From: an uncultured Gammaproteobacteria bacterium
Lineage (GTDB): Bacteria; Patescibacteriota; Microgenomatia; 2-02-FULL-39-11
Reading direction: 5' to 3'
Assembly (NCBI GenBank): GCA_964544585.1
Contig: CAZJBV010000007.1
Span: 1 to 59,215 of the forward strand
DNA: 59,215 nt
Part shown: piece by piece, positions 937-52,887 of the stretch
How positions within the stretch are numbered: the stretch's first letter is position 1
Layout of the letters: the number at the start of each line of letters is the position of its first letter
Notes under the pieces: model-generated
The model's input: only the letters and a program-made list of their open reading frames with translations
Database searches by the model: none
Told to the model about the DNA's origin: nothing
Position numbers and translations under genes: made by a program

Positions 937-1977
937 TCAATATTTGAAGAATGAATATTTATTGCTAAGTCCGATTATCTCTCTCACCTCCGTCATCGTC
1001 TCCGCTGCCACTTTTCGAGTTTTTTCTGCACCCTCTTTTAGTATTTCCTTTACCATCACAGGGTTTGATTTAAGTTCATTATATCTTTCTCTTGCCGGTC
1101 CGAAAGTTTTCATTAGAGATTCAAATAAATATTCTTTCACCTCCACATCCCCCACTTTCCCCTCTTTATATCGCTTTTTATATTCCGCAACTTGCCCTTT
1201 TTCTCCAAAAAAATCCAAATAAGAAAACACCATATTTCCCTCAATATGTCCAGGATCTGTCGGATGAATCCGTGTCGGATCTGTATATGTATCCATCACC
1301 TGCTTTTTTATGACCGCTTCATCTTCAAATATACTGATAATATTTCCCAAAGATTTACTCATTTTTCTTTTCCCATCAGTCCCCATTATCACAGCTACTT
1401 CTTCGGGAATATACGGATCTGGCAAAGGAAATATATCGGTTCGGTAGGTCTTATTAAACCTTTCCGCAATATCCCGCGTTATCTCTATATGCTGCTTCTG
1501 ATCCTTCCCCACAGGCACGAGATCTGGCTTATAAAGAAGTATATCCGAGGCCATCAAAATCGGATAATTAAAAAGACCCAAATTAATATCGTCTTCTTTA
1601 GTCTCTTTTGCAAGTTTATCTTTATATGCATGAGCCCGCCTCAAAAGCCCCAATGGCGTCACAGTATTTAAAATCCACGTCAGTTCCGCATGCTCCAAAA
1701 CATCAGACTGTCTGAAAAAAGTAATATTAGCCTGCCCTGAGCCTGTCGAAGGGGTCAGATCTCCCAATAGCGCCAACTCATTTAAAATCAACGTCTCTGT
1801 ATTCTTCTGCAAAGTTTCCTTATTTTGAATAGTCGTCAATGCATGCAGATCAGCCACCATCAAAAAGCAATCAACGGATTTGGCTAGCTCTATAAATTGT
1901 CTTACAGCTCCTAAATAATTTCCTATATGGAGGGTTCCATCTCCACTCGGAGTAATTCCAGCCAGTATTCTTTTCAT
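937..1977 (-). CDS. trpS: Tryptophanyl-tRNA synthetase
   Basis: GITPSG..LHIGNYLG (HIGH), KMSKS, YPILMASDILLY, VPVGKDQKQH; carries an extra TPSTGSGQA segment. Confidence 0.97.
   Translation of the reverse strand: MKRILAGITPSGDGTLHIGNYLGAVRQFIELAKSVDCFLMVADLHALTTIQNKETLQKNTETLILNELALLGDLTPSTGSGQANITFFRQSDVLEHAELTWILNTVTPLGLLRRAHAYKDKLAKETKEDDINLGLFNYPILMASDILLYKPDLVPVGKDQKQHIEITRDIAERFNKTYRTDIFPLPDPYIPEEVAVIMGTDGKRKMSKSLGNIISIFEDEAVIKKQVMDTYTDPTRIHPTDPGHIEGNMVFSYLDFFGEKGQVAEYKKRYKEGKVGDVEVKEYLFESLMKTFGPARERYNELKSNPVMVKEILKEGAEKTRKVAAETMTEVREIIGLSNKYSFFKY
1730..1754. repeat. REP-like element (ccctgagcctgtcgaagg type) inserted in frame in trpS
   Basis: gcctgccctgagcctgtcgaagggg encodes TPSTGSGQA in a loop before the 'F.QSDV' motif. 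Confidence 0.6.
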
Positions 1978-2723
1978 GGTTTTATTGTACCAGCTTTAAG
2001 AAGCCTTATAAATCTTTTTAAACCCTTTATCCCCCTTTTATCATATTCATTAATAATCGCACTTCCTACAATTGCTATTTCTGCATGACCATATAGTAAC
2101 TCAATCTGTTCTCTTTTCGATATCCCAAATCCGATAGCCAAAGGAAGATCTGTTACTTTTCTTACTCTCTCAATATATTCAAATAGACTTTTATTAAATA
2201 CACTCTTTGTTCCAGTCACACCAAAATGACTTACTAAGTAAAGAAATCCTTTCCCTATTTTTGAATTTATCCTTACTCTTTCCTCACTACTCGATGGAGA
2301 AATTACCCTAATAGAATCTACGCTATATTTATTACACAGCGCTATAAACTGCTCATTCTTCTCTTCTTCAGGCGGAATATCAGGAACAATTAATCCCTCC
2401 ACCCCTAAATCTTTTGCTTTTTTTATAAATCGTTCTACCCCATACCGAAAGACTTGATTGTAATAGCACATAATATATTTAGGTACATGATACTTTTTCA
2501 ACGAATCTATAAATTGAAACGCACGATCTGTATTCATTCCATTTTTCAATGCCACCTCCAATGCATGCATAATAGTCTCCCCATCGGCTACAGGATCCGA
2601 AAAAGGAATCTGCAGCTCCAAATAATCAGCTCCGCCATCAACAAGAGTCTTTACAATCTCATAACTCTCACCAACATTCGGATATCCTACCACCACATGA
2701 GTCATAAGTTTTATTTTGTTCAT
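1974..2723 (-). CDS. trpA: Tryptophan synthase alpha chain
   Basis: LELQIPFSDPVADG, GLIVPDIP, GVTG, IGFGIS, IVGSA motifs. Confidence 0.97.
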   Translation of the reverse strand: MNKIKLMTHVVVGYPNVGESYEIVKTLVDGGADYLELQIPFSDPVADGETIMHALEVALKNGMNTDRAFQFIDSLKKYHVPKYIMCYYNQVFRYGVERFIKKAKDLGVEGLIVPDIPPEEEKNEQFIALCNKYSVDSIRVISPSSSEERVRINSKIGKGFLYLVSHFGVTGTKSVFNKSLFEYIERVRKVTDLPLAIGFGISKREQIELLYGHAEIAIVGSAIINEYDKRGIKGLKRFIRLLKAGTIKP

Positions 2724-3961
2724 ACTTTAGTCCTCAAAAATTCAATCCAATTTTTGTCATTAAGTGCTTCCGCAACTATAAATATATCTTTATCTCCCCT
2801 TCCAGAAAGATTTACAACTATTATTTTGTCTTTCGAAAGTTTGGGCGCAAGTTTGATAGCTTCAGCCACCGCATGTGCCGATTCCAACGCGCATATTATC
2901 CCCTCAGACTTTGCCAAAAGTTTATACGCCTCCAAAACTTGCCTGTCAGTTGCATATGTAAACTTTACCCTTCCCACACTCCCGAGATACGCCAATTGCG
3001 GCCCAATCCCAGGATAATCGAGTCCCGCAGACACACTATGCGTTGCCGAAATATTGCCATATTTATCTTGCAAAAAAAGCGATTTATATCCTTCGACAAC
3101 TCCTGTTTCTCCACCAGCAAATCTCGCCGCATGATCACCAATTTTCTTTACTCCTCTACCTCCCGCTTCCACTCCAATAAGTTTGACATTTTCATCATCC
3201 AAAAACCGATAAAATATTCCCATCGCATTACTTCCTCCACCCGTACAGGCGACGATATAATCCGGTAATCTTCCTTCCCTCCTCATTATCTCTTCCTTCA
3301 CCTCAATCCCTACAACTTGTTGAAAATCACGGTTTATAGTAGGAAAAGGATGCGGCCCGACAGTCGATCCCAAAAGATAATGAGTATTTTCTACATTCGT
3401 AATCCAGTCTTTCAAAGCCGCATTCACCGCATCTTTCAAAGTCTTCGTTCCAAAGGAAACAGATATAACTTTAGCTCCCAGCTGCTCCATCCAAAATACA
3501 TTTGGCCGCTGCCGGGCTACATCCACGGCACCCATGTAGACTACACACTCCAATCCAAATTTCGCTGCCACAGTCGCCGCCGCCACCCCATGTTGACCTG
3601 CTCCAGTCTCTGCAATAAGCCTCTTCTTCCCCATTCTCGTGGCCAAAAGTGCCTGGCCTATACAATGCGTTATTTTATGTGCTCCGGATAGATTGAGTCC
3701 CTCATTTTTTAAATAAATTTTTGCTCCTCCCAAACTTTTAGTTAAATTCGAAGCCAAAGTCAAAGGCGTCGGTCTACCCGCGTATGTATACAATAACTCC
3801 ATAAATTCTCTCCCAAAGTTTGTATCTTTTTTCGCTCTATCGTATGCTTGCTCCAATTCCGTAAGTGCCGGAATAAGCATTTCCGGTGCATATCTGCCGC
3901 CAAATTTACCAAAATGACCTTTTGAGTCTCCATCAAACTTTGTCTTAAAATCAAAAATCAT
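2720..3961 (-). CDS. trpB: Tryptophan synthase beta chain
   Basis: GAHK PLP lysine, IAETGAGQHG, GGGSNA, SAGLDYPGIGP, NLSGRGDKD. Confidence 0.98.
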   Translation of the reverse strand: MIFDFKTKFDGDSKGHFGKFGGRYAPEMLIPALTELEQAYDRAKKDTNFGREFMELLYTYAGRPTPLTLASNLTKSLGGAKIYLKNEGLNLSGAHKITHCIGQALLATRMGKKRLIAETGAGQHGVAAATVAAKFGLECVVYMGAVDVARQRPNVFWMEQLGAKVISVSFGTKTLKDAVNAALKDWITNVENTHYLLGSTVGPHPFPTINRDFQQVVGIEVKEEIMRREGRLPDYIVACTGGGSNAMGIFYRFLDDENVKLIGVEAGGRGVKKIGDHAARFAGGETGVVEGYKSLFLQDKYGNISATHSVSAGLDYPGIGPQLAYLGSVGRVKFTYATDRQVLEAYKLLAKSEGIICALESAHAVAEAIKLAPKLSKDKIIVVNLSGRGDKDIFIVAEALNDKNWIEFLRTKV

Positions 3962-6297
3962 AATACTCCTCTCGCATTCTTCACAAATGCAATAATCTTC
4001 TCGCTATCCTTTTTTCCATTAGTCTCCACTCCTCCTGCAACATCCACTGCAAAAGGCGCAACCCCCGCCACAATCCCTCCCACATTCTCCGGATTTAAAC
4101 CCCCGGCCAAAAAAATCGGATACTGCCTTGCCATATTTTTTGCATACTCCAGTGAAACCATCTTACCTTTCCCTTGTTCTTCCCTATCAACGAGAAAATA
4201 TGCCACAGAATATGAATCAGTTTTTCTTGCAGAAATCGTTTTTATCACCTGACAATCAATTTCATCGCAATAGTAAGGGCTCTCCTCTCCATGTAGTTGC
4301 ACAAAATCTAAATGAAGATTTTGCACAACATGATTTATATACGCTTTATTCTGATCTTGAAAAACTCCCACAAATTGTATTTTTCCAGAAAATGACAAAA
4401 TGATGCGTTTGGCCATATCTTCTGAAATACGCCTCTTCGAACTCGGCACAAAATTCAAGCCAATAAAATCTACACCGGCCTCAATACACATTTGTGCCTC
4501 CTCAACCGTTTTTATTCCACAGATTTTGATTTTAGTTTTCATAGTATTTAAGGGTCGGACCCTGAAGGGTCCGACCCTTTCCAAACTTTTCAACTTCTTT
4601 ATAAGTTTTGCCGGGTCGTCCGATTTCATCAATATAGTTCCAACCAAAACCCCTTTTGCCCCAGCTTTTTTATACCTTTCGATATCACGAGCTTCTTTCA
4701 CTCCTGAAAACGCAAGCGCCGTATGCGTTTTGGGAATTTTTCCTAGTATTTCACATGCTTTTTTCCTGTCAATTGAAAAATCGTCCAAATTGCGAGAATT
4801 GACAGCAACAATCTCCACCCCCGTCTTCAATGCACCTATTAACTCCTCCTCTGTATTCACTTCCACCACCGGCTCCATCCCCAATGCTTCTACCAATTTG
4901 ACCAATTGGACTAATTTGTCCAATGATAATATCTTCGCAATCAACAAAACAGCGTCCGCCCCATTCTTTTTTGCCTTATAAATCTGATCTTTACTTACAA
5001 CAAAGTCTTTACAAAGAATAGGTAAAGTAGTTAAATTCCTCACAAAGGAGAGTAACTCATAGCTTCCGCCAAAACGTTTTTTATCAACCACAACCGACAG
5101 ACAATCTGCCTCCCCCTTTTCATATGCAATTACTTTTCCTTTTACATCTCTCTTCTCTCCCAGTTTTCCTTCTGTTGGGGATTTTAGCTTTATCTCAGCA
5201 ATCAGCGAAGTATTACTATTTTTTGGATGCAAAATAGCATTACGAAATTTATTTCTATTTTGTGAAAAAGATATGAATGTCTCCAATACTTTTTTGGCTC
5301 TTCCTGAATCTATAGACTTCTTCGCCATCAAAATGCCCTCGTCAATAGTCTTTGCTTTTCCGGAAACATACAATGCTAGGGCACTATTGAAAATGACAAT
5401 ATCTCTTCTCCCTCCCTGCCTGCCGGCAGGCAGGCCTCTCTCTCCATCTAAAATTGACTTTATTATGGCTGCATTCTCTTTCGCATCCCCACCATGTATA
5501 AAATTATTTTTTTCATATTTAAATCCATATTTTTTAGGATCAAGAATATATTTTTTTGCCTTTTTTCCTTTTACTTCAAAAACATGGGTCTTTGCCAAAA
5601 CACTCACCTCATCGAGCCCATCCTCACTCGTAAGAATCAAAAGGTGCTCATACCTCAAACGAGCTGCAACGCGTGAAAGTTTCTCGGCAATCTCCAAATT
5701 CGGAACCCCTATTATCTGTCTTTTTACCCCTGCCGGATTCACCAATGGACCCAAAAAATTAAATATCGTCCGAATTCCCAATTCTCTACGTACAAGCGAA
5801 ACATGTTTCATCGCCGGATGATAAAGTGGAGCAAAAAGGAAAGTTATTCCTACTTCCTTCAAACACCTCATTACCTGCGCAGCCGTTAGCATTATATTTA
5901 CTCCCATTGCCTCCAAAACATCAGCACTTCCGCTCTTACTGCTGGCGGCTCGATTTCCATGTTTAGCAACCGCAACCCCTGCGCCTGTTACTACAAACGC
6001 CGTCGCCGTCGATATATTAAATGTCCCCTTTCCATCTCCTCCCGTCCCACACACATCTATTGCTCCCGCCCCAATCGGCATCTTCACCATTCTCCTCCTC
6101 ATTGCTTTTATAAAACCTATGATTTCTTCTTCTGTCTCTCCCTTCATTCGTAAACCAGTCAATAAAGAAGCAATCTGTACCCCTGTCAGGTTTCCTTGCA
6201 ATATTTCCCCCATCAACATCTCTGCCTGTCTGATAGTAAGGTTTCTTGTACTAAGTACGGTATTTAAAAATTGTGTAATTGAAAATTGAGATTTCAT
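3958..6297 (-). CDS. trpD/trpC/trpF: Triple fusion: anthranilate phosphoribosyltransferase (TrpD) - indole-3-glycerol-phosphate synthase (TrpC) - phosphoribosylanthranilate isomerase (TrpF)
   Basis: TrpD: DVCGTGGDG, AKHGNR, SGSADVLE; TrpC: IAEIK..SP, KDF, GADAVLLI, N.RNL; TrpF from internal Met at 4542: KIKICGI, QLHGEE, LAGGL, VDVAGGVE; one continuous 779-aa frame. Confidence 0.93.
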   Translation of the reverse strand: MKSQFSITQFLNTVLSTRNLTIRQAEMLMGEILQGNLTGVQIASLLTGLRMKGETEEEIIGFIKAMRRRMVKMPIGAGAIDVCGTGGDGKGTFNISTATAFVVTGAGVAVAKHGNRAASSKSGSADVLEAMGVNIMLTAAQVMRCLKEVGITFLFAPLYHPAMKHVSLVRRELGIRTIFNFLGPLVNPAGVKRQIIGVPNLEIAEKLSRVAARLRYEHLLILTSEDGLDEVSVLAKTHVFEVKGKKAKKYILDPKKYGFKYEKNNFIHGGDAKENAAIIKSILDGERGLPAGRQGGRRDIVIFNSALALYVSGKAKTIDEGILMAKKSIDSGRAKKVLETFISFSQNRNKFRNAILHPKNSNTSLIAEIKLKSPTEGKLGEKRDVKGKVIAYEKGEADCLSVVVDKKRFGGSYELLSFVRNLTTLPILCKDFVVSKDQIYKAKKNGADAVLLIAKILSLDKLVQLVKLVEALGMEPVVEVNTEEELIGALKTGVEIVAVNSRNLDDFSIDRKKACEILGKIPKTHTALAFSGVKEARDIERYKKAGAKGVLVGTILMKSDDPAKLIKKLKSLERVGPFRVRPLNTMKTKIKICGIKTVEEAQMCIEAGVDFIGLNFVPSSKRRISEDMAKRIILSFSGKIQFVGVFQDQNKAYINHVVQNLHLDFVQLHGEESPYYCDEIDCQVIKTISARKTDSYSVAYFLVDREEQGKGKMVSLEYAKNMARQYPIFLAGGLNPENVGGIVAGVAPFAVDVAGGVETNGKKDSEKIIAFVKNARGVL
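4550..4579. repeat. Perfect 14-bp-arm inverted repeat at the trpC/trpF junction
   Basis: aagggtcggaccct-ga-agggtccgaccctt. Confidence 0.9.
5414..5434. repeat. 21-bp 'PAGRQ' palindromic element, in frame in trpD
   Basis: ccctgcctgccggcaggcagg; encodes LPAGRQG. Confidence 0.9.
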
Positions 6298-6312
6298 TGA
6301 AAATTTAAAATT

Positions 6313-6333
6313 CCTGCCTGCCGGACAGGCAGG
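6313..6333. repeat. 21-bp 'PAGRQ' palindromic element, intergenic, inside a TGAAAAT heptamer array
   Basis: cctgcctgccggacaggcagg. Confidence 0.85.
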
Positions 6334-6338
6334 GAAAA

Positions 6339-6917
6339 TTAAAAATTTAGAAAATTCCTCAGAATTTTCCTCCCCTCCTCCGTCCCAATCGATTCCGGAT
6401 GAAACTGTATTCCATATATCGGATACTCAGTATGCCTAACCCCCATAATCTCTCTATCATCCAAAGACTCCGAAGTCACCTCAAGACATTTAGGTATCGA
6501 TGTCTTTTCCCCCACGAGGGAATGATAACGCATGCCCAAAAGCGGATTTTTGACCTTTTGGAAAATACCCTTACTATTATGCTTAATTAAACTTTTCTTC
6601 CCGTGTTTCACCATCCCTGCCCTTACCACTCTCCCGCCAAAAGCATAAATTACTCCTTGATGCCCAAGACATACGCCTAAAATAGGAATGTTTTTCCCAA
6701 TCTTCAAGATCACATCACTACATACGCCAAAATATGCCCTATCGGAAGGATCTCCTGGTCCCGGCGAAATTACAATATGCGTATATTTTCCTCTACCAAC
6801 TTCATCCAAAGTTATTTCATTATTTCTCATAACAACTGGCTTCCCTCCCAATTCCCCAATATACTGGTAAAGGTTATATGTAAACGAATCATAGTTATCA
6901 ATAATGAGTGTTTTCAT
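6339..6917 (-). CDS. trpG: Anthranilate synthase component II (glutamine amidotransferase)
   Basis: Probable start Met at 6917: MKTLIIDNYDSFTYNL, ISPGPG, GVCLGHQ, QFHPES. Confidence 0.96.
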   Translation of the reverse strand: MKTLIIDNYDSFTYNLYQYIGELGGKPVVMRNNEITLDEVGRGKYTHIVISPGPGDPSDRAYFGVCSDVILKIGKNIPILGVCLGHQGVIYAFGGRVVRAGMVKHGKKSLIKHNSKGIFQKVKNPLLGMRYHSLVGEKTSIPKCLEVTSESLDDREIMGVRHTEYPIYGIQFHPESIGTEEGRKILRNFLNF

Positions 6918-6925
6918 ATTAGTGA

Positions 6926-7006
6926 GATAAACGATAAGGGATAAAGGATAAAAGAGTAAATAAATATTACATTGCACTTTTATCTTTTATCTTCATATCT
7001 TTTATC
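6926..7006. repeat. Inverted GATA/TATC heptamer arrays at the trpE-trpG junction
   Basis: GATA at 6926/6933/6940/6947; TATC at 6981/6988/6996/7003. Confidence 0.8.
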
Positions 7007-8370
7007 CCTTTTCCCTGCGCCTCGCGCAGCGCCTCCTCCACCGCTTTCTGTTTATTCACTATCTCTAAAAATTCCGAAGAAGAAGTAGAGTCAGCCACAA
7101 TTCCGCTTCCTGTCTGTGTATAGGCATAGCTGCCCTTTCTAAAAAAGGAGCGGATAATAATAGCCATCATCGCCTCCTGATTAAACGAAAAATACCCTCC
7201 CACACCTCCATATGGCCCCCTCGCCTCCCCTTCTAGATTAGCTATTATTTTTAATGCCTCCACTTTTGGAGCTCCCGACAGCGTCCCGGCCGGAAAACAA
7301 GCCGAAAGTGCCGAAAAAGCATTCTCTCTTTTTTTTAATACTCCATGTATTTCCGAAAAAATATGCTGCACATGACTAAACTTTTTAATACTTGCCAATT
7401 TTTCCACTCTTATACTTCCAAATTCACAAATCCTTCCCACATCGTTTCTGGCCAGATCAACCAGCATCATATGTTCGGCCATCTCTTTCGGATCTCCCAA
7501 AAGCTTCTTTTCAAATTTTTTATCATCTTTTTCTGTCACACCTCTCCCAATCGTTCCTGCCAATGTCCCGAAGTGCTCAATTTTTTCTCCCGCAACCCTT
7601 ATCAATAGTTCAGGACTGGCAGATAAAATTTCTCTCTCTCCAAATTTAAAATACATCATATAGGGAGAAGGATTGATCTGCCGCAAAATAGCATATACTC
7701 GCCTCGTATCTCCCGATACTTTAAAATGTGTTTTTTGAGAAACAACAACCTGAAATATGTTACCTTTTCTTATCTGTTCCAAGGCTTCAAAAGTAATTCT
7801 CTCCTGCCTTTCTTTATTAACCGTTTTTAATTTACTAAAAGAAAATGATCCGATGGATGAAGGAGTATGTATTGCCTTCAAAATTTTACCCACTCTACTC
7901 TTGCCATAACTAAAATAAACGCAACTTTTTTTCTTCTTATCAAATCTGAGGCCATCCAAGAAAAGTCCCATCTCAAAATCAGGAAATTCTGGATTATGAT
8001 GCCCCACAAAAGCCTTCTCAAAATATTTTGTCGCCTCATATGAAAAATAACCTACCAGTCCTCCGCAGTATCCCTCCTTCTTTGCAGCCTTAATCCTCGC
8101 AAATTCACTCATATATTCATAAATATCTTTCACCTTTTCTCGCCTTCCATTAATTAAAAGCTCATATCCCTTCGCTGTAATTAAAAACAGTGGATCAAAG
8201 CCGATATAAGAAAATCTGTTATATTTACCTTCCTCTCCCAAACTCTCTAACAAAAACATATTTTCACACAACCCATAAAGCCGTTTAAAAGCCTCAAATG
8301 CCGAAATAGACAAATCGATTTTCTCTTCTTGATATTTCCCGAGTTTGATATCTTTGAATATGTTATCCAT
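6967..8370 (-). CDS. trpE: Anthranilate synthase component I
   Basis: FLLES, GLVGYFSYE, INPSPYM, SASPELL, EH.MLVDLARND, FPAGTLSGAPK; first gene of the trp cluster. Confidence 0.95.
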   Translation of the reverse strand: MDNIFKDIKLGKYQEEKIDLSISAFEAFKRLYGLCENMFLLESLGEEGKYNRFSYIGFDPLFLITAKGYELLINGRREKVKDIYEYMSEFARIKAAKKEGYCGGLVGYFSYEATKYFEKAFVGHHNPEFPDFEMGLFLDGLRFDKKKKSCVYFSYGKSRVGKILKAIHTPSSIGSFSFSKLKTVNKERQERITFEALEQIRKGNIFQVVVSQKTHFKVSGDTRRVYAILRQINPSPYMMYFKFGEREILSASPELLIRVAGEKIEHFGTLAGTIGRGVTEKDDKKFEKKLLGDPKEMAEHMMLVDLARNDVGRICEFGSIRVEKLASIKKFSHVQHIFSEIHGVLKKRENAFSALSACFPAGTLSGAPKVEALKIIANLEGEARGPYGGVGGYFSFNQEAMMAIIIRSFFRKGSYAYTQTGSGIVADSTSSSEFLEIVNKQKAVEEALREAQGKGIKDMKIKDKSAM

Positions 8371-8494
8371 AGATTCCTTTCCATAATCCCAGTACTATGC
8401 TTACTTGCTCCCGAGGTTTACATCCTCGCGTCGCAAGAGCGCAAGTACGGGATGTGGGAGAGTAAGATTCATTTTATTCATCAACTCTCCCATC

Positions 8495-8540
8495 AAAAAA
8501 ACCCTCTTTCTCCCCGATCCAATGGGGGGTACTCAAGGGT
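8495..8540 (-). terminator. Intrinsic terminator of the T-box leader
   Basis: ACCCU...CCCC...GGGG...AGGGU followed by a U-run; its 5' arm overlaps the antiterminator 3' strand. Confidence 0.8.
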
Positions 8541-8746
8541 GTATTTCTACACGGTGCCACCTTGCTTTTCGCAATCTCAATAAAAAATCCCGACCAAAGT
8601 CGGGACACATCAAGAGATTACTCTCATTCTTGACATGCTCCGTCCGCCAGCTGGCGGATGACACATGTTGCTTGACTTTCTCCGGTTTCGCCTCCGTATC
8701 CGATTTAGGGATCAGCTCCAAGGGTCCAACCATCCCTCATCATCGC
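8495..8746 (-). promoter_or_regulatory. T-box riboswitch, Trp (UGG) specifier, ultra-short stem I
   Basis: Antiterminator AAGG-UGGCACC-GUG...CAC-CCUU (8535-8563); stem I GCGAUGA-UGAGGG[AUGGUUGGA]CCCUUG-GAGC (8715-8746) with UGG at 8726-8728; overlapping terminator. Confidence 0.88.
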
Positions 8747-8875
8747 TTTTCTTAAACTCATAATATCATACCACATCTGTCAAATTTACGTACCGGCAGT
8801 GAAATTTCTGCTTTACTATATATAAACGAACCACTAAGATATATATAATACTTATTATTGCCTTATATTCGATAT

Positions 8876-12692: not shown

Positions 12693-12721
12693 TTTCCGAC
12701 AATCCTTTTTCTCCAAAACTG

Positions 12722-12793
12722 TGGGCCTGCTTGGGATCGAACCAAGGACATCCAAATTATAAGTTTGGCGCTCTGCCACTGAGCTACAGGCCC
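12722..12793 (-). tRNA. tRNA-Ile(UAU); CCA not encoded
   Basis: 72-nt cloverleaf: GGGCCUG/CAGGCCC, anticodon arm CCAAA-CUUAUAA-UUUGG, T-arm CUUGG-UUCGAUC-CCAAG. Confidence 0.93.
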
Positions 12794-13303: not shown

Positions 13304-15652
13304 TTACAATTTCGCCCTCTGCTGTATCTCTGCTTCTACCAGCTCTCGTGGTCGTCCATATTTCAAACGTGACAATTGCAGTATTGCCTCCGCCACTTTC
13401 GGATTCTCCACCCTCTTCTGTGCACCCATATCTTTCCTAAGATCCACCGAAAAAGGCGGCACCGGCTTATTATTAACGATCGTATTTAAATAAGCATTAT
13501 ACACATCCACATTAATTAGATCACCCTCATTAAATACGGGTTGGTACCAGTGCTGGAGGTAATTTGCATCGGTTACACCTATTCGAAATGATACAAGCGT
13601 ACCCACATTTCCAAATACCGCATTTTTCACCTCTTCTTCCATTTGTCCAATAAATTGATTAGCAACAATCAAATTAAGCCTATATTTCCTTGCCTCCGAA
13701 AGTATCTGCGCAAAATCCGGCGTGGCAAAATTCTGAAACTCATCAACATAAAGGTAAAAATCTCTTCTTTTTTCCTCAACCATATCCTGCCTACTCATCG
13801 CCGCCACCAGAATTTTCGGCACCATTATTAAACCCAAGAAGCTCGAATTTTCCTCCCCCAGTCTTCCCTTGGCCAGGTTAATAAGTAGTATCTTACCTTC
13901 ATCCATAATTTTGCGAAAATCAAACGCAGACTTTGACTGACCAATGATATTTCTCATTAGCTTATTCGTCACAAACCGCCCAAATTTAGACACTATATAA
14001 TCCAATACCTCCGACTTATGAAAATCAGAAGTCTGTGCTATCTGATCAGTCCAGTAGCGCCTCACAATTGGATCTTGCACCTTAGGCAAAAGTTCCTGAA
14101 CATAAGCCGAATCAGTCAATACCCTCACCACCTCCACAAAAGACGTCCCAGGATCACTCATTACAGTCAGCATTGCATTCCTTATCGCATGCTCAAATCG
14201 AGGCCCAATAATACCAGTTTTTTGCGGATCATAAAGCTTATACATAAGTCCTATGATAGATGTACATACAAAGTGTTTTTGTTCCTCAGTATGCGCCTCC
14301 AGCATATTTAATCCCATCGGCCTTTCTATATCTGAAGGATCAAAATAAACCACATCCTCTGCCCTTTCGGGAGGAATAAGAGGCAAAATACCCTCCACCA
14401 AATCTCCATGCGGGTCAATCGCTGCTACCCCCTTGCCATTTTTTATATCCTGTAAAATCATGTCCTTTAATAGAACTGATTTCCCCACGCCCGTTTTTCC
14501 AATAATATATATATGCCGTCTTCTATCGTCATCGCCTATATAAACAGGTTTACTTATACCTCTATAAGTGCTTTTCCCTATATACAAACCACCGCGAGGT
14601 ATATCTGCCGGTGCCGGAGCTCTCTTTGACGTCACCCAAAATATATGCGGCGTCTCAACCGATTTATTTGGAAAATGAAATAAAGTCGCCAATTCCTCTG
14701 CTGATAGGACACTATATGGCTTCTTTACAAAAGTCACAATCGGAAAATATCGGTAAATAAAGTCGATCATAAAAGAACTTTTGAGCCTCGTTTTAACCTT
14801 GGTAAAGTTATTTAAATCAGAGGAAAATTGGGCAAAAACAGTTTCTAGGTTATGAAGATGCATTTGGGCTGATTCTTTAGAATAAGAAGAAACAACCAGC
14901 CGTATAACAGTATCAAAGCCTACTCGAGAAATTTTATTTTCAATAGATTCGAGAGTCTTTGGATCTACTTTATACTGGGCTTTTTCCGGATTTGCTTCCT
15001 GTTTTTTGACATTGGATATATAACTTCTTCCCGCCTTTTTCCACTTTCCCGAAGATGGAGAGATAATTATCTGCACCGCCGCTCCTTCGCCCTGACCCAT
15101 TTTACCAAGTGCTGATGTCAAAGACGACAATGGGTCAACAGGCAGATCCTTAAAAACCCTGATTGGATAATAGTCAGCATGCTTCAGTTTAAGTTGCGCA
15201 AATGCCACTTTCCCCTTCTCGTCAAAAATATTATACTCATCGACTTCCCGAATGTCAGCTCCCGGATACGACCCATATATCTGTTTTTCTACAAGATCAC
15301 GCAGTCTACTCGGCACCGATACATAAAATCGTATATCCCCCGGCCTGCCTACTATCTCAAACGAAATATAATCCTGCTGTGACAAAAAAGAAAACATTCC
15401 TCCACGATGCAAAGATGCAAGGGATGAAAATATCTGCTCTGCAGCATCTATTTTTATCTCATTATCCTTTGGTACTGCCACTTGAAGAAGTACAAAATCC
15501 AAGCTTTTTCTTTCCCGACTCCGGTATTTATACCACAGAAATACAATATATCCCAATATAAAAACCAAAACCCCCAATATAGAAAGTACAACAAAACTCA
15601 AGATAAATGCTTCAGTTTGTGAAATTAAAGTCCCCGAAAATTCCTCATTCAT
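13304..15652 (-). CDS. Membrane-anchored VirD4/TraG/HerA-like (DUF87) ATPase
   Basis: N-terminal TM; Walker A GKTGVGKS; IDPHGD; Walker B YVDEFQNF; EARKYRLNL..ANQ. Confidence 0.88.
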   Translation of the reverse strand: MNEEFSGTLISQTEAFILSFVVLSILGVLVFILGYIVFLWYKYRSRERKSLDFVLLQVAVPKDNEIKIDAAEQIFSSLASLHRGGMFSFLSQQDYISFEIVGRPGDIRFYVSVPSRLRDLVEKQIYGSYPGADIREVDEYNIFDEKGKVAFAQLKLKHADYYPIRVFKDLPVDPLSSLTSALGKMGQGEGAAVQIIISPSSGKWKKAGRSYISNVKKQEANPEKAQYKVDPKTLESIENKISRVGFDTVIRLVVSSYSKESAQMHLHNLETVFAQFSSDLNNFTKVKTRLKSSFMIDFIYRYFPIVTFVKKPYSVLSAEELATLFHFPNKSVETPHIFWVTSKRAPAPADIPRGGLYIGKSTYRGISKPVYIGDDDRRRHIYIIGKTGVGKSVLLKDMILQDIKNGKGVAAIDPHGDLVEGILPLIPPERAEDVVYFDPSDIERPMGLNMLEAHTEEQKHFVCTSIIGLMYKLYDPQKTGIIGPRFEHAIRNAMLTVMSDPGTSFVEVVRVLTDSAYVQELLPKVQDPIVRRYWTDQIAQTSDFHKSEVLDYIVSKFGRFVTNKLMRNIIGQSKSAFDFRKIMDEGKILLINLAKGRLGEENSSFLGLIMVPKILVAAMSRQDMVEEKRRDFYLYVDEFQNFATPDFAQILSEARKYRLNLIVANQFIGQMEEEVKNAVFGNVGTLVSFRIGVTDANYLQHWYQPVFNEGDLINVDVYNAYLNTIVNNKPVPPFSVDLRKDMGAQKRVENPKVAEAILQLSRLKYGRPRELVEAEIQQRAKL

Positions 15653-15711: not shown

Positions 15712-16153
15712 TGGTACTGGGGGTATATTGCACTCGCATAATTTTTCCGTGAATTACTTTCAAAGTTAAATGTGCCTTTTTAAGCTTTCGTATACACCAT
15801 TCAGCTAACCATCGTAAAGCTGAATATACCTGCGCATGTAGTCCAGAAACAACTTGTTGATCAGAAATAGGCAGAACAATTGCCGCTTGCCCCGTTGTCG
15901 TAACTGGAGTACTTGGTCCAGATGGCGAAACCCCCATCCTTTGTAAATCAGGCGGAACTTTAACAGCTTCCTCATGTGCGTATACCCCTACTCCCTTTAC
16001 CTCTTTTGACGGCTGTAATTCAGGGGAAACTGACTGTAACACCTCTTGAGAAGAGACACCTCCGCCTAACTGCTCTTTCGCCATAGAACCTGACGGAGAA
16101 ATCGCCGCAGGTGTCTGAGATTGTTGACTATTTTGCTGGGCAGAATTATCCAT
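15701..16153 (-). CDS. Hypothetical protein (S/Q/P-rich N-terminus, conserved-looking C-terminal helix)
   Basis: ORF track 156 aa; probable start at Met 16153; C-terminal SALRWLAEWC.RKLK. Confidence 0.65.
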   Translation of the reverse strand: MDNSAQQNSQQSQTPAAISPSGSMAKEQLGGGVSSQEVLQSVSPELQPSKEVKGVGVYAHEEAVKVPPDLQRMGVSPSGPSTPVTTTGQAAIVLPISDQQVVSGLHAQVYSALRWLAEWCIRKLKKAHLTLKVIHGKIMRVQYTPSTSPE

Positions 16154-18539
16154 ACATTTGCTCCCGTACATGTATTATAGATTCAAAAGAGGAGGGAGAC
16201 AAACGGTTAGCCTTCTCATAGGAAAAAATAATTCCATAACTCGGGAATTTTTTTCCTGCCTGCCCATTCGGAAGAACGGTCTGTGGTCTCTTCTGGTTCA
16301 AGCCATTCCTCCTTAATAAAAATTCAACACTCCCTGGCTTTTTCTTCCTTTTTAAGAAATGTTTTTTCGAGAAAGTTTTAGAAACCGACTCAATTTTAAG
16401 TTGCTTAAAAATACTTTTCAGTTTGCTAATAAAATATATAATTTTCTCAAAATCACCATTAAGAGAAATTATCATTCTTCCCTTCTTCAAAAGGCTTTTC
16501 TTCTGAATACTATTTACGTTAGAAGTATAAGTTTCATATTTTCTAAAATATTTCCTCTCCATTGTAAAAATGAATTTCAATACACTCATAGTCATAATTC
16601 TTTCTTTTAGCCAACCTTTTTCTAATCGACGTATATGTTTCCGGACCATTTTTTCTATATAAACTGTAGTTTTTTTAGTAATTCTGCCTTTTTTAAAATC
16701 TCTATATTGCTTGCTTTCTTTTCCATACAAAAGTAAAATCCATCTTCTAAGCTCCCTCTTCCCCTGCAAAATAGAAGATCTATCTTTTGAAACTCGTCTC
16801 CGCATCGTCTCTAAAAATTTCAACAATTTTCGTTGAGTTCGAAGAACTCTCAACACTCTCCTTTCTCGCTTCTTTATTTCTTTTTTAATATAGTTAACAG
16901 TCTTTTCTATAAATTTATATGGATTGGTCACAAATTCCTTAAAACGCCTTTTTTCTCTTCGTATAATTGTCTTTATTAATTCTTTCTTCGGCTGCAAAAA
17001 TTTACCTCTCTCCACCTTTTCCACAGATAATCTTTCTCGTCTCTGATATCTAATTCTCTGCTTCTTTGCTTCAAGCTTGGATACAACTTTTTTACCTTCC
17101 AAAGACCCCGAGGCAAAAGCCGTAGTTATATAATTTTTCAAAAGGCGATCTTTACCTGTAGGAACTTTTCTAGCAGTAGAAATAAATATCGTCTCCTTTC
17201 TCTTCCCCTTTCTTTGACTAAATCCGTCCAAAACTTCCTGAGAGAATATTTTTAATGAAGATTTACTGAAATCTCTTTTCTTCGCTTCCTTGGGCACAAA
17301 TATACTCTGCGAAGAAATACTACCATTTCTATGTAAGGGGCGATGTGCATTATAAATTTTACCCTTTATATCAGCAATTATAGCCAATCCTACTTCTTCG
17401 GCCTTTAATTTCCCTTTTCTTGGAATTATTTCTATCCCCGCAATCTTTTGCTCTGCCAATCTCCTCCAATATCTAAATCCTCTCCCACCAGAATGACCCC
17501 GATGCCGTTTTATTGGCTTGGTCAAATCCCTAAAACCTGAGTGATAAAGCGCTATTGGCTTTTCGGCAACTGCTTTAGATCGTGATTTCACTAAAGCAAT
17601 ATTTTCCCTTTCAGTAATTTTATGTCCAGTTGTTTTTACGGCAGACTGTTCTTTTTCATCCAATTGTCTTGCCCACGTCGCCAAACTCTGTCCGATTGTT
17701 CCTAAAGCATCTTGAGTACTCTTCTCATTAAGCAATTTTTGAACTTCTTTTCTTATATATCGTTCTTGTGCTGCAATATTCCTATCCCGTATCTCCTCTG
17801 GCATTTGAGCTTCATTTATAAGACGATGAATAGTTGGAGCAAATGCCTTTCTTTCTTCAATACTCAAACGATCAACATAAGTCAAAACAACATCCTCAAG
17901 TTTAAGATCGTCCTCCCCTTTTCGGCTATCTCGGACTACGACCACGTCTTTGATATTGCCATTTCGATCATGAGTCTTACCGGAAAATGCATCCAGAAAA
18001 TTCCACATGGAATCCATATCCTTATGTTGCAATTGTAAAGAGTACAGTTCTCCAGAATCTTTACCATCGTGTCTTGCAATATACATTCGATCACTACCAT
18101 CGCCTTCGGGACTAAACCAAATTACATCGCCATTTGTTCTATAAATAGTATCTGCAATCCCACCTATTCTCTTTCGAAGTAGTCCATTTTCTTCCAAAGA
18201 ATTAATAACATCTTCATAAGATCTATTCGCTTCATGTGCAAAATATACCGTATCTTTGAGAATCTTCTCCCCTGTCACTACATCGGTAACAATAGCTTTT
18301 CCTGTCCTAAAAGGCACTTTATCAATTTTTAAACCCTGTCCCTGCTGTCTATAAAATTCATTTACTTCCGTTCTCGCATTAACAGTCAATGAATCAATCG
18401 CCTGACGCCGCGACATTACTTTATTGTTATACAATCCCTCACCAATAGCCCGAGCAGTTCTACCCACATTAAAACCATGTTTGTCCAACTTTCCTGGTAT
18501 TCCTCCTGGCATGCCCCCGGGAGCTTCTGCATTCATCAT
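16146..18539 (-). CDS. Large hypothetical protein with a very Lys/Arg-rich C-terminal half
   Basis: 797-aa open frame directly downstream of the B12 riboswitch terminator. Confidence 0.7.
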   Translation of the reverse strand: MMNAEAPGGMPGGIPGKLDKHGFNVGRTARAIGEGLYNNKVMSRRQAIDSLTVNARTEVNEFYRQQGQGLKIDKVPFRTGKAIVTDVVTGEKILKDTVYFAHEANRSYEDVINSLEENGLLRKRIGGIADTIYRTNGDVIWFSPEGDGSDRMYIARHDGKDSGELYSLQLQHKDMDSMWNFLDAFSGKTHDRNGNIKDVVVVRDSRKGEDDLKLEDVVLTYVDRLSIEERKAFAPTIHRLINEAQMPEEIRDRNIAAQERYIRKEVQKLLNEKSTQDALGTIGQSLATWARQLDEKEQSAVKTTGHKITERENIALVKSRSKAVAEKPIALYHSGFRDLTKPIKRHRGHSGGRGFRYWRRLAEQKIAGIEIIPRKGKLKAEEVGLAIIADIKGKIYNAHRPLHRNGSISSQSIFVPKEAKKRDFSKSSLKIFSQEVLDGFSQRKGKRKETIFISTARKVPTGKDRLLKNYITTAFASGSLEGKKVVSKLEAKKQRIRYQRRERLSVEKVERGKFLQPKKELIKTIIRREKRRFKEFVTNPYKFIEKTVNYIKKEIKKRERRVLRVLRTQRKLLKFLETMRRRVSKDRSSILQGKRELRRWILLLYGKESKQYRDFKKGRITKKTTVYIEKMVRKHIRRLEKGWLKERIMTMSVLKFIFTMERKYFRKYETYTSNVNSIQKKSLLKKGRMIISLNGDFEKIIYFISKLKSIFKQLKIESVSKTFSKKHFLKRKKKPGSVEFLLRRNGLNQKRPQTVLPNGQAGKKFPSYGIIFSYEKANRLSPSSFESIIHVREQMYG

Positions 18540-19340: not shown

Positions 19341-21734
19341 CTAACATTCCGAGTATCCACAGGCGTAGCATTTTTTGCATCCTTCCTCATAGGCTAAAGA
19401 GGCTTCCCCACACGAAGGACACAAATCAAAATCAGAAGCTGCAGCCGGCAATAACTGCTGCGTCATTACCGATACCGGTTTTACTTCCTGTTTCAGCTCT
19501 ATTTTTACCTCAGAGGAAATCTGAGAACCATTCCCATTTTTAAGGGCAAAATTAAGATGCATCGCCAAAGCCTTGGCTACAGCATCGGGCAAAGAACGCA
19601 CTCTCTTTTCCCCAAATCCCAAAGACTTCGACCCTCCAATCCCTATCAGCTGATTAAATACCTGTTTTGCCCGCTCTTTGGGCGAAAGAGGCGACGCCAC
19701 CCTCAGCATCGCTGAAATTACTCTTCCCAATGCCTCAGCCATCGCCGCCACATCAGACCCTGCCTTCCCTACATTGATAAAAACTTCCAAAGGCTCATTA
19801 TTACCATTGGTATTTATAGTCACAAATGCAGTCCCGACAGGCGTATCAATCTGGTATGTTGCCCCTGAAACCATCATTGGTCTTGGCTTAATTTCAGGTA
19901 CGACAACCGTTTCCCCGTTTGGTTTTGCCATCTGCTTTTCCTCCCTGCTTGCCCGTCCGGCAGGCGGGCCTGCCGGCAAGGCAGGCTTTTTAGCATCAGT
20001 TCTCTCCAAAACTCCAGGACGCGACCCTTCTCTCATGTAAGTCACACCCTTACAACCCAATTCATACGCCAACGTATACAATTTCTTTACATCTTCTACC
20101 GTATGATTATTAGGAGCATTAACTGTTTTTGAAATCGAGGCATCAACATGACTTTGAATCGCCGCCTGCACCTTCACATGATCCTCCGGCGTCAGATCAT
20201 TAGCCGACACAAAATATTCAGGTACTGGATCGCGAGGATTTGCCTTTTTCCATTCGTCAAACAGAGGATGATAAAGAATATGCTCTCCCAGTCGATCGCG
20301 TCTTATAAACGAAAATTCATAAACAGGTTCAATCCCCGACGTAGTCCCGGAAAGTAATGAAGTCGATCCCGTCGGTGCCTGCTGTGTCAAAATCGAGTTT
20401 CTTATCCCCCACTTCAACATTTTCTTTCTCAAAGACTCAGGCAGTTTTTTGATAAAGTAGCCTTGTAGATATTTTTTCTTATCAAACTTGGGAAAAACAC
20501 CTTTTTCTTTGGCAATTTCGATAGATGCTTCATACACCGAATCGCGAATTAGCTTATAAATTTTATCTATTACCCTAATTGACTCATCAGAACCATATCT
20601 CAATTTCATCTTAATAAGCGCATCCCCAAGTCCCATCGTTCCCACTCCAATTCTTCTTTCCCCCTCCAATTGCACTTTACGAATTTCGTCAAAAACATAT
20701 ACGTCAGCATCAACTACATTATCTTGAAATCTCACCGCCACTTTTGCCGTTTCAGATAGACCCTTGTAATCCATTTTCCCATCCTTCACAAACTGAGAAA
20801 GATTAATAGATCCCAAATTACAAACCCCCCAAGGTGGAAGTCCCTCTTCACCGCACGGATTTACACAATTTACTTTCTCCCAATACCAATTGTTAAACCA
20901 TTTATTGTATCTCTCCATAAATACCACTCCCGGTTCAGCAGATCCCCATGCCGCATCACAAATCAAATCCCACATTTTTCTTGCCGAAACTCTTTTTGTT
21001 ACCTTTACCTTTCCTCCCTTTTTCACCCATTCATCTAAATCTCCATCCCACTCGCTATCATACTTAGGATCTGAAATATCAGGAAACTTCAATTCCCATT
21101 CCGCATCTTTTTTGACTGCCGCCATAAACTTGTCAGATACACACACAGAAAGATTGGCACCAGTAATTCTAGTCAAATCCCTCTTTACCGTTATAAATTC
21201 TTCCACATCTGGATGCCAATCCCAAAGCATAAGCATTAAAGCGCCTCTCCGACTCCCCCCTTGCTGAATAATATCTTTTGTCGCAACACTAAAAAGTTCT
21301 GCCCAATTACATGGTCCCGAAGAATGTCCATTTACTTTTCGCACATATGCTCCTCTTGGTCTCAAAGATGAAAGATTTATTCCTACCCCACCACCCCTTG
21401 CCATAATCTCCACCATCTGTGAAAGCGTTTTCAATATTCCTTCCCGAGAATCATGCGGTGAAGGAATGACAAAGCAATTATAAAAAGTCACTTTTGTTCT
21501 TGTTCCCGCCCCAGCCAAAATCCGACCCCCAGGAACATACTTAAAATCTTCCATCGCTTTGTAAAACCTTTTCTCCCAAGTGTTCCTCTCACCCTTCGTC
21601 GTCTCCACTTCAGAAACTGCAGCAGCCACTCTCCTCCACATTTCTTCCGGAGTCTTTTCCACAGGCTGTCCTTTATCGTTTTTGAGTGCATAGCGGTCAA
21701 GAAAAACTTGTTCCCGTATTCCAGTAAGTTTCAT
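19341..21734 (-). CDS. nrdJ: Class II (AdoCbl-dependent) ribonucleotide reductase with C-terminal TSCPD/Zn-ribbon region
   Basis: PGGRILAG, YNCFV, GGGVG.NLS.LRP, NPCGE, CNLGSINL, APTGS, ISKTVN, terminal CPSC...C..CGYSEC. Confidence 0.95.
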   Translation of the reverse strand: MKLTGIREQVFLDRYALKNDKGQPVEKTPEEMWRRVAAAVSEVETTKGERNTWEKRFYKAMEDFKYVPGGRILAGAGTRTKVTFYNCFVIPSPHDSREGILKTLSQMVEIMARGGGVGINLSSLRPRGAYVRKVNGHSSGPCNWAELFSVATKDIIQQGGSRRGALMLMLWDWHPDVEEFITVKRDLTRITGANLSVCVSDKFMAAVKKDAEWELKFPDISDPKYDSEWDGDLDEWVKKGGKVKVTKRVSARKMWDLICDAAWGSAEPGVVFMERYNKWFNNWYWEKVNCVNPCGEEGLPPWGVCNLGSINLSQFVKDGKMDYKGLSETAKVAVRFQDNVVDADVYVFDEIRKVQLEGERRIGVGTMGLGDALIKMKLRYGSDESIRVIDKIYKLIRDSVYEASIEIAKEKGVFPKFDKKKYLQGYFIKKLPESLRKKMLKWGIRNSILTQQAPTGSTSLLSGTTSGIEPVYEFSFIRRDRLGEHILYHPLFDEWKKANPRDPVPEYFVSANDLTPEDHVKVQAAIQSHVDASISKTVNAPNNHTVEDVKKLYTLAYELGCKGVTYMREGSRPGVLERTDAKKPALPAGPPAGRASREEKQMAKPNGETVVVPEIKPRPMMVSGATYQIDTPVGTAFVTINTNGNNEPLEVFINVGKAGSDVAAMAEALGRVISAMLRVASPLSPKERAKQVFNQLIGIGGSKSLGFGEKRVRSLPDAVAKALAMHLNFALKNGNGSQISSEVKIELKQEVKPVSVMTQQLLPAAASDFDLCPSCGEASLAYEEGCKKCYACGYSEC
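19944..19985. repeat. 42-bp nested 'PAGRQ' element, in frame in nrdJ
   Basis: cctgcttgcccgtccggcaggcgggcctgccggcaaggcagg; removing it gives KKEEK. Confidence 0.88.
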
Positions 21735-30727: not shown

Positions 30728-31838
30728 CTCTAAAATTGTAACTTCAGAAGGCTTGACGTTTGACGACGTCCTTATTTTGCCGGACTATACAGATACCAAA
30801 CGCCAGGACATTTCTCTCAAAACCCGCCTTACCCCAAAAATTTCCCTCGAGATTCCTATCCTCTCCTCTCCCATGGATACAGTCACAACTGCACCTATGG
30901 CATTAAGTCTCGCCAAACTTGGCGGTATAGGCTTTATCCATCGAAACCTAACAATAGACCAACAAGTAGAAGAAATAAAAGTCGTCAAAACAGGTAATCA
31001 TATGGTCGGCGCAGCAGTCGGCGTCGGCCGCGACCTCGAAGAACGCGTCGCCAAAATAGTTGCCGTCGATGTCGACATAATTTTAGTCGATTCCGCCCAT
31101 GGCTTTTCTAAATGGGTCATCGAAGCCATAGAATTCATTTCGGGAAAATATCCAAATATAGAAATTATCGGAGGAAATATCTCCACAAAAGAAGCCGCCG
31201 AAAAACTCATCGAGGCAGGCGCCAAAGCCCTCCGGGTCGGTATGGGCCCGGGATCAATCTGTACCACCAGAGTCATCTCCGGCATGGGTGTCCCCCAAAT
31301 TACCGCCATCATGGAAGTCTACGCTGTGGCCAGAAAACATGATATTCCCATTATCGCCGACGGCGGTATTAAAAGTTCTGGGGACATTACCAAGGCATTA
31401 GCCGCTGGTTCAGATACGGTCATGCTCGGCTCTCTTCTAGCCGGCGCCGACGAAGCTCCCGGCGAAAAAGTAACCCTGCCTGCCCGTCCGGCAGGCGGGC
31501 CTGCCGGCAGGCAGGGCATAAAAGGCAAAGAATTTAAAAGATATAGAGGCATGGGCTCGGTTGCCGCCATGAAAGAAGGCGGCGCCGCCCGCTACGGCCA
31601 AGAATACGTCAAAGGCAAAGAAAAAACATTAATAGAAGAAGGCGTCGAGGGTCTCGTTCCCTACAAAGGCAGCCTCAAAGACGTCATCATCCAGCTAACA
31701 GGCGGCCTTCGCACCGGTATGTATTACGCCGGAGTAAAAAATATCGAAGAACTCAAAACCAAAACCAAATTCCTAAAAATCACCCAAAGCTCTTTAATCG
31801 AAAACTACCCCCAAGATATCATCATTCAGCAAAAATAA
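30714..31838 (+). CDS. guaB: IMP dehydrogenase (no CBS subdomain)
   Basis: [48 protein letters not shown]. Confidence 0.93.
31475..31516. repeat. 42-bp nested 'PAGRQ' element, in frame in guaB
   Basis: cctgcctgcccgtccggcaggcgggcctgccggcaggcaggg; removing it gives KVTIKGK. Confidence 0.9.
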
Positions 31839-52151: not shown

Positions 52152-52172
52152 CTGCCCTGCCGGCAGGCGGGC
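52152..52172. repeat. 21-bp 'PAGRQ' element inside an ATTTTGC heptamer array (52138-52193)
   Basis: attttgc attttgc [ctgccctgccggcaggcgggc] attttaa attttgc attttcc. Confidence 0.85.
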
Positions 52173-52741: not shown

Positions 52742-52887
52742 AAAGTCCAGAGATTCGGCAAACTGGTAAGAAGCGAGCTAAGGGGAGTATATGGTAAATA
52801 TACTTCTAGGAGATTCGAACCCTGCCTGCCTTGCCTGCCGGCAGGCTGGCCGGCAGGCAGGCAGTTGCAGCAGAATATATGGACTTG
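52742..52887 (+). ncRNA. Probable 6S RNA carrying a 42-nt palindromic insertion
   Basis: Closing stem AAGUCC/GGACUU; inner GCAA/UUGC pairing; terminal hairpin GGAGUAUA/UAUACUUC; 3' 'uucgaacc...uugcagcag...gga' resembles 6S 3' conserved blocks; -10 CATAAT at 52722. Confidence 0.55.
52821..52862. repeat. 42-bp nested 'PAGRQ' element in the putative 6S RNA
   Basis: cctgcctgccttgcctgccggcaggctggccggcaggcaggc. Confidence 0.85.

Follow-up and report, generated by a model that had tools for sequence, protein, structure and literature searches.

A palindromic REP doublet between trpC and trpF as the probable origin of a three-enzyme fusion in a patescibacterial trp operon

The fused trp gene and its junction

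The window analysed in this study, by which we mean the whole 59,215-nucleotide stretch of contig CAZJBV010000007.1 (assembly GCA_964544585.1), was deposited as DNA of an uncultured Gammaproteobacteria bacterium and is placed by GTDB in the Patescibacteriota. Its minus strand carries a complete trp operon (1974-8370) in the order trpE-trpG-trpDCF-trpB-trpA, in which TrpD, TrpC and TrpF are encoded by one open reading frame (ORF). We consider here a 28-nt palindromic block within this ORF, located between the TrpC and TrpF parts. The genes of the operon and the Pfam domains of the fusion protein, namely TrpD, indole-3-glycerol phosphate synthase (IGPS) and phosphoribosylanthranilate isomerase (PRAI), are as follows.

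6967-8370, minus strand: trpE
6339-6977, minus strand: trpG
3958-6297, minus strand: trpDCF fusion ORF of 779 amino acids (ORF list and Pfam)
2720-3961, minus strand: trpB
1974-2723, minus strand: trpA
About 5296-6273, minus strand: TrpD domain, residues 9-334 (Pfam)
About 4591-5286, minus strand: IGPS (TrpC) domain, residues 338-569, profile positions 24-254 of 254 (Pfam)
About 3976-4527, minus strand: PRAI (TrpF) domain, residues 591-774, profile positions 2-193 of 193 (Pfam)

Judging from the Pfam coverage, the IGPS and PRAI domains are both complete within one polypeptide, and the 28-nt block is placed exactly between the two matches in the single 779-aa ORF. On the coding (minus) strand the junction reads AGT TTG GAA AGG GTC GGA CCC TTC AGG GTC CGA CCC TTA AAT ACT ATG AAA ACT, with the block lying between the last TrpC codon and the old ATG of trpF. 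Its parts are listed below, where REP stands for repetitive extragenic palindrome and REPIN for an inverted REP doublet that forms a hairpin.

4551-4578, minus strand: 28-nt core AGGGTCGGACCCT-TC-AGGGTCCGACCCT, two 13-nt REP units, inverted, with a 2-nt spacer
4566-4578, minus strand: REP unit AGGGTCGGACCCT, as on the coding strand
4564-4565, minus strand: spacer TC, 2 nt, between the REP units
4551-4563, minus strand: REP unit AGGGTCCGACCCT, as on the coding strand
4550-4579, no strand assigned: perfect hairpin of 30 nt with 14-nt arms and a 2-nt loop, 14/14 (100%) complementary including the flanking A and T
4543-4578, minus strand: 12-codon linker RVGPFRVRPLNT, residues 574-585, the putative REPIN and the presumed former stop and overlap region read in the new frame
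4548-4550, minus strand: TAA, now out of frame, which is the in-frame trpC stop once the 28-nt core is removed
4539-4542, minus strand: putative relic ATGA, in which the old trpF ATG (4542-4540, now internal Met586) overlaps the old trpC TGA (4541-4539)

An earlier reading of the sequence alone had given the positions of the palindrome, the TAA and the ATG, together with the 12-codon linker, and all of these held when the sequence was read again. The computed fold of the junction RNA has a 13-bp stem, within a local structure whose folding energy is -29.3 kcal/mol (z = -5.3 against shuffled sequences). A function of the hairpin as a transcription terminator was considered and rejected, as no U-tract follows it.

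Residues 336-779 were modelled with AlphaFold2 from an alignment of 38 sequences. The model has a mean predicted local distance difference test score (pLDDT) of 90.6 and consists of two well-predicted domains of alternating strands and helices, the architecture expected of IGPS and PRAI. Only the N-terminus and model residues 240-250, corresponding to ORF residues 575-585 in the repeat-encoded linker, have pLDDT values below 50. No Shine-Dalgarno-like sequence is present between the hairpin and the old trpF ATG, and thus TrpF is probably made only by read-through of the fusion. The fusion protein is presumably made and active.

The junction region is 100% identical in the metagenome-assembled genome (MAG) GCA_016186845.1 (contig JACPKX010000010.1) and in the Logan assemblies SRR12113424, SRR12113384 and SRR12113430. 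Since the junction is identical across five assemblies, four of which are independent of the window, it is not an assembly artefact.

Unfused relatives and the frame of the junction

A search of 5.8 billion proteins for relatives of the fusion showed that the closest ones are TrpD-TrpC proteins without PRAI, P0002 (70% amino-acid identity) and P0003 and P0004 (about 50%), and that the contigs encoding them carry trpF as a separate gene. At the related loci L001 and L002 (both at 70% amino-acid identity) and L003, the stop of trpDC and the start of trpF share an ATGA, and at L004 (about 50%, like L003) the overlap of the two genes is 17 nt. The palindrome is absent from all four loci. Separate, palindrome-free trpDC and trpF in sister genomes are what the sequence-only reading had predicted.

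The triple fusions TrpD-TrpC-TrpF of other Patescibacteria are only about 35-40% identical to the window protein, and 35-38% when compared over the full length. In a neighbour-joining tree of the TrpC domain, the window protein is paired with the unfused P0002, and their sister group consists of P0003, P0004 and P0117. P0117, which groups near the unfused P0004, represents a TrpC-TrpF fusion of independent origin whose domains are joined directly. Natural TrpC-TrpF fusions have no extra residues where the window protein has ERVGPFRVRPLNT, and the linker RVGPFRVRPLNT occurs in none of the natural fusions compared, nor in the unfused sisters. Because the window protein is nested among unfused relatives, its fusion is, as far as these sequences indicate, recent, derived and separate from the other fusions.

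The nucleotide alignments suggest what distinguishes the fused from the unfused form. A global alignment with L003 has a single gap at the junction, of exactly 28 nt, between TTTGGAAAG (9/9 identical) and xATAxTATGAA; elsewhere in this alignment there are two further gaps upstream, both of them in-frame. Against L001 the gaps are 37 and 3 nt, a net difference of +40 that MAFFT places in one 40-column gap, and against L004 the difference is 44 nt, as required by the different overlap and frame relation of that locus. The junction differences from L003 (28) and from L001 (40) are both 3n+1.

Deletion of the core leaves GAA TAA ATA CTA TGA, and deletion of 28 nt shifted by two leaves GAA AGA ATA CTA TGA, encoding ...LERIL* and ending in ATGA, very similar to ...LESII* of L003. 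Both deletions make the old trpC frame end, as it does in the sisters, at the TAA and/or at the TGA of ATGA. The sequence-only reading had claimed that removal of 28 bp brings the TAA in frame directly after TrpC, and this was confirmed, with the frame and stops of the sisters restored. The ATG retained at the start position of the sisters' trpF is, on this comparison, the apparent relic of a once separate gene. An insertion of the palindrome as the cause of the TrpC-TrpF fusion, as proposed from the sequence alone, is thus supported by the unfused sisters without the block and by the L003 gap of exactly 28 nt.

The form of the empty site expected at the junction is TTTGGAA(AG)(A/T)AATACTATGA. 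A search of the JGI metagenomes with a degenerate junction pattern allowing a gap of 21-51 nt returned neither an empty-site nor a filled allele, this collection being without the lineage.

The repeat family and its transposase

Genomes were scanned, with one genome per species, for doublets consisting of the 13-mer, 0-8 nt and a second 13-mer. In other genomes the doublet was found at 53 loci, against a chance expectation of about 0.01 (a rough estimate of our own). Its hosts are mostly Patescibacteria (Roizman-, Levy-, Gottesman-, Davies-, Curtiss- and Portnoybacteria, Saccharibacteria and Minisyncoccales), with few others; some are low-GC MAGs labelled Gammaproteobacteria, whose flanks are orthologous to those of Roizmanbacteria. 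Within a MAG, family copies are present on up to 7 contigs, together with single units. The exact 28-mer of the window is also found in L009, in frame inside tgt, and in L072, the one further context that a metagenome search for it returned, where the spacer supplies a stop codon. We also considered TGGAA, which the window and L009 have in common with the empty site of L003 but which L072 lacks, as a possible target sequence or component of the element; this was dropped, two of three being too few.

A single REP unit of 13 nt already forms a perfect palindrome. Inverted arrangements, with centre bases G...C or C...G, account for 55 of the 62 doublets (p = 2e-10), and 44 are palindromic over the full length. 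Centre bases of this kind imply one long hairpin rather than two independent units. Spacers of 2, 5 or 8 nt, giving cores of 28, 31 and 34 nt, make up 40 of the 62 copies, a periodicity of 3 nt. No target-site duplication is visible among the 62 copies, and neither a GTAG nor a CGTC tetranucleotide is present in or next to the core. In 31-nt cores tallied by eye, the preceding base is a pyrimidine in 20/20 and the following base a purine in 19/20, some of these copies being orthologous and therefore not all independent.

About 15 of the 62 copies (about a quarter) are located within long ORFs whose read-through frame is open on both sides, and many others are at gene ends. Extragenic position, a character of REPs, does not hold for the window copy, which lies in an ORF. 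Genes bearing the repeat include those for PriA, ATP-dependent DNA ligase, RecJ, PolX, Tgt, an M16 peptidase and a flavoprotein, and LepA has a copy at one shared site in three genomes. Several intragenic copies are inside a single Pfam domain match. Depending on the frame, the encoded peptide is GSDPxGGSDP, QGRTLxEGPTL or RVGPxRVRP.

In 10 of the 53 loci the doublet adjoins a gene of 216-256 amino acids, at a distance of a few to a few tens of bases or with overlap, and in L025 and L042 the gene has a doublet on either side. The encoded proteins share the motifs MPAKN..Y...G.YH.YNRG, PNHFHL (the HUH motif) and YIHxNP. Their Pfam Y1_Tnp scores of 24-47 bits are above the 23-bit cut-off, and their nearest solved structure is ISDra2 TnpA. 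The NCBIfam model NF047646, for the REP-associated tyrosine transposase (RAYT), was the best match in the four Microgenomates-type homologues tested, at 35-56 bits and hence below its 80-bit cut-off, and gave no match for two proteins of the L043/L021 type. RAYTs are Y1/HUH transposases with an HxH motif and a catalytic Tyr. A profile search found thousands of homologues, the named sources being mostly Patescibacteria 'transposase'. Three homologues picked regardless of the repeat (Woesebacteria CP058602 and CP055308 and a JGI contig) each have related palindromes on either side, namely ACAAGGACGGACCTTGT, ACAGGGTCGGATCCTGT and AGGGTCAGTCCTTATAAGGACTGACCCT, one variant of which has a compensatory change of G-C to A-T in the stem. 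The C-terminus of the RAYT-type protein is itself encoded by the repeat in L011, L025, L042 and L044. The REPIN cores are conserved across several candidate phyla; the transposases are only 25-45% identical. At L021 (2763-4383), a contig of a Saccharibacteria MAG, an RVT_1 reverse transcriptase and a gene with an NYN domain were observed between two REPIN doublets, with RVT_1 split into two ORFs by a GAGA-type repeat.

Since the doublet is nearly always inverted and adjoins a RAYT-type transposase gene in 10 loci, the element at the trp junction is, by its sequence characters, assigned to the REPINs. A hitherto undescribed REPIN-RAYT system in Patescibacteria, spanning several candidate phyla and with repeats shaped for intragenic life, is a tentative generalization to which we give slightly less than an even chance. 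The shaping is suggested by the self-palindromic 13-nt unit, the spacers of 2, 5 and 8 nt, the absence of stops in the common frames and the roughly one quarter of copies that are translated within housekeeping enzymes. If the generalization is correct, the system would be a recurrent source of linkers, C-termini and fusions in streamlined genomes, and the trpC-trpF junction would be a fusion caught soon after its formation.

Origin of the fusion and comparison with known systems

The explanation that we favour, and consider likely from the comparison of these sequences, is that a mobile REPIN landed at the end of trpC and shifted its frame into trpF, giving the three-enzyme fusion. In the ancestor of this Gottesmanbacteria-like lineage, trpDC would have ended a few codons before the start of trpF or overlapped it as ATGA, as in the living sisters. 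A RAYT-type enzyme presumably mobilised the repeats via single-stranded DNA, by analogy with the biochemistry of IS200/IS605 and RAYT, and a net insertion of 28 nt (3n+1) between the last TrpC codons and the stop would have moved the trpC frame into that of trpF, so that the old TAA and the TGA of ATGA came to be out of frame. The REPIN and the 8 nt before the ATG would then have become a disordered linker of 12 residues, and the outcome would be one TrpD-TrpC-TrpF polypeptide in which the old trpF ATG encodes an internal Met. At a site of this kind, from which the shifted frame continues in phase into the neighbouring gene, an insertion that is not a multiple of three is precisely what selection would tolerate.

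Causation by the repeat requires a net insertion of 3n+1, not of 27 or 30 nt, and several observations weigh against it. Nearly all intragenic copies have a 3n+1 core and yet are in frame, so that their net insertion is the core minus 1 or plus 2; a net gain of exactly the core length, which the trp junction would require, would be atypical. The nearest empty sites are in genomes diverged by at least 23% at the DNA level, in which several events could hide, and the alignment to L001 has 36 co-optimal solutions. An empty-site allele from the same population was sought by exact-protein look-ups, which gave four more assemblies, all of them filled. Furthermore, the junction copy is the sole member of the 13-mer family in the 59-kb window, where hmmsearch found no RAYT, and the association with a transposase is established for the family in other genomes, not for the window genome.

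It may be asked whether an ordinary frameshift or stop loss first fused trpC with trpF, after which a REPIN inserted in frame merely decorated the joint. A net insertion of 27 or 30 nt would mean that the gene was already fused, since the fused frame is still open when 27 or 30 nt are taken out (...SLE(I/L)NTM... or ...SLENTM...), and the in-frame intragenic copies, which share cores of 28 or 31 nt, show that the net insertion is normally 3n. Linkers tolerate insertions, and fusion and fission are frequent in the clade, P0117 being fused and P0004 unfused. However, this course needs two rare events within one stretch of 30-40 nt and a hidden extra indel, whereas the L003 alignment gives 28 nt, a conserved TTTGGAAAG-ATGAA spacing and no second indel, and a fused relative free of the palindrome was found nowhere among the 5.8 billion proteins. 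We therefore regard two successive events as unlikely and infer a single one.

It is considerably less probable that the hairpin is not simply read through, with TrpDC and TrpF made separately by stalling, hopping, reinitiation or mRNA processing. The stable, GC-rich stem of 13 bp does end only 8 nt before the old ATG, and in the mitochondria of Magnusiomyces translation bypasses GC-rich palindromes located within coding regions. The read-through frame, however, is open and has no stop, no Shine-Dalgarno-like sequence precedes the ATG, and many family members within single enzyme domains are flanked on either side by hundreds of codons of open read-through frame, as would be expected of translated copies. 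Translational bypass was rejected in particular, as there are no matched take-off and landing codons around the block and the intragenic copies retain an open frame. We think it very improbable that the palindrome arose in place, by a 15-nt tandem duplication or template switching, without mobility. The block can also be read as the direct 15-nt units AGGGTCGGACCCTTC + AGGGTCCGACCCTTA and is the sole copy in the window, but the identical 28-mer occurs in two unrelated contexts elsewhere, the doublet is present in 53 loci and adjoins RAYT-like genes, and its centre bases G...C are the typical inverted arrangement of the family. An assembly or sequencing artefact, or a decaying pseudogene, is the least credible of these alternatives. 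Chimeras of assembly or amplification can produce palindromes and the source is a MAG, but the same sequence was recovered in an NCBI MAG and three separately assembled runs, and the intact ORF gives full-length Pfam matches and a structure model of high confidence.

The window contains a second, unrelated family of palindromes with the core CCTGCC/GGCAGG, for which there are 12 pattern matches against 0.02 expected. Its GC-rich palindromes are located as follows.

5407-5445, no strand assigned: in an ORF
19939-19988, no strand assigned: in an ORF
31470-31521, no strand assigned: in an ORF
45082-45110, no strand assigned: in an ORF
52155-52168, no strand assigned: intergenic
52819-52871, no strand assigned: intergenic
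54603-54674, no strand assigned: intergenic

This second family is in frame in TrpD of the fusion ORF, where it adds 21 nt relative to L001 and encodes 'LPAGRQG', and also in class II ribonucleotide reductase, IMP dehydrogenase and Fe/Mn superoxide dismutase. A 42-nt composite form is common to the IMP dehydrogenase and ribonucleotide reductase copies. No transposase adjoins the copies in the window, their neighbours being an RNaseH-like protein and ribosomal protein L25. The palindrome in the IMP dehydrogenase gene (31475-31517) is a strain polymorphism: in L059 (Logan SRR12113430), 99.6-100% identical over 3.5 kb, a single T replaces the 43-nt block, and all nine single-nucleotide differences from the window are confined to the 110 nt upstream of the block, a pattern resembling a tract of recombination or conversion. 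At this site the sister genome L060 carries a version of 21 nt.

Further palindromic insertions are associated with trp genes. Upstream of trpE is a T-box leader (8532-8752, minus strand) that is below the Rfam threshold (36.9 bits, E = 1e-6), has the AAGGTGGCACCGTG motif and a terminator and is 93% identical to that of L001. The leader contains a palindromic insert, CCGCCAGCTGGCGG, at 8633-8668, and an extra palindromic block of about 110 nt (about 8375-8490) separates the terminator from the trpE ATG; L001 has neither. In L001, TrpC contains a palindromic insert of its own, in frame and about 75 nt long, at about 4870-4950 of L001, with ...TTGCAACCCTTCGGGTTGCAA... within an outer CCCATCT/AGATGGG stem, which adds about 25 residues absent from the window protein. 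The abundance of other small palindromic insertions in the window supports the activity of such elements in the lineage.

Outside the trp operon, a tRNA-Ile with the anticodon TAT (12721-12793, minus strand) provides an uncommon bacterial way to read AUA. An ATPase resembling the VirD4/TraG coupling protein (13304-15652, minus strand) adjoins a 797-aa ORF without a Pfam match (16146-18539, minus strand), and the pair possibly belongs to a conjugative or type IV secretion module.

Gene fusions are usually recognised so late that no trace of the causal mutation is left; in the present case the probable lesion can still be read beside the old stops and start, and it would offer a concrete mechanism by which selfish repeats create multifunctional enzymes. 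REPIN-RAYT systems, studied mainly in Proteobacteria, would be extended to the ultra-small Patescibacteria, with many copies translated. For annotation, odd stretches of Gly/Ser/Asp/Pro or Arg/Val/Gly/Pro in proteins of the Candidate Phyla Radiation (CPR, Patescibacteria), such as GSDPPGGSDP, QGRTLQEGPTL and RVGPFRVRP, become recognisable as repeat-encoded. The trp pathway furthermore allows easy functional testing by complementation of E. coli trpC and trpF mutants.

The family resembles the REP/REPIN-RAYT systems, such as REP/BIME (bacterial interspersed mosaic element) with TnpA-REP in E. coli and the REPINs of Pseudomonas fluorescens, in its short GC-rich palindromic units, mostly inverted doublets that form one hairpin, in its adjoining Y1/HUH tyrosine transposase, for which RAYT is the best curated match, and in having no visible target-site duplication. 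REPs mostly have a GTAG or CGTC tag at the foot of the hairpin, and intragenic REPs, often in replication and repair genes, are known in other phyla (Di Nocera et al. 2013, PMC3733652). The present family differs from REP/REPIN-RAYT systems in its patescibacterial host, the self-palindromic 13-nt unit, the missing tag, the quarter of copies translated within genes and the transposases below the NCBIfam cut-off. In the literature searched we found no paper linking RAYT or REPIN with Patescibacteria, and nothing relevant on these palindrome sequences or on palindromes in CPR genes.

Rickettsia palindromic elements (RPEs) are likewise palindromes in frame in housekeeping genes of AT-rich reduced genomes, and the replication and repair hosts PriA, DNA ligase, RecJ and PolX are reminiscent of them. 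The classic RPE-1, at about 100-150 bp, greatly exceeds the present repeat in length. The short RPE-4 and RPE-6 have been classed as CGTC-tagged REPs (PMC3733652). Unlike RPEs, the window copy is not an in-frame decoration but apparently a 3n+1 insertion joining two genes, although other copies of the family do act in frame. The domain order TrpD (anthranilate phosphoribosyltransferase)-IGPS-PRAI is that of the E. coli TrpCF type and of other patescibacterial TrpD-TrpC-TrpF proteins, whereas other TrpC-TrpF fusions join their domains directly, with no extra linker. Finally, the GC clusters and byps of yeast mitochondria are also GC-rich palindromes that spread in AT-rich genomes, including coding regions; in contrast to them, the repeat described here has an open read-through frame that needs no bypass, and a candidate transposase is identifiable for it, whereas GC clusters have none.

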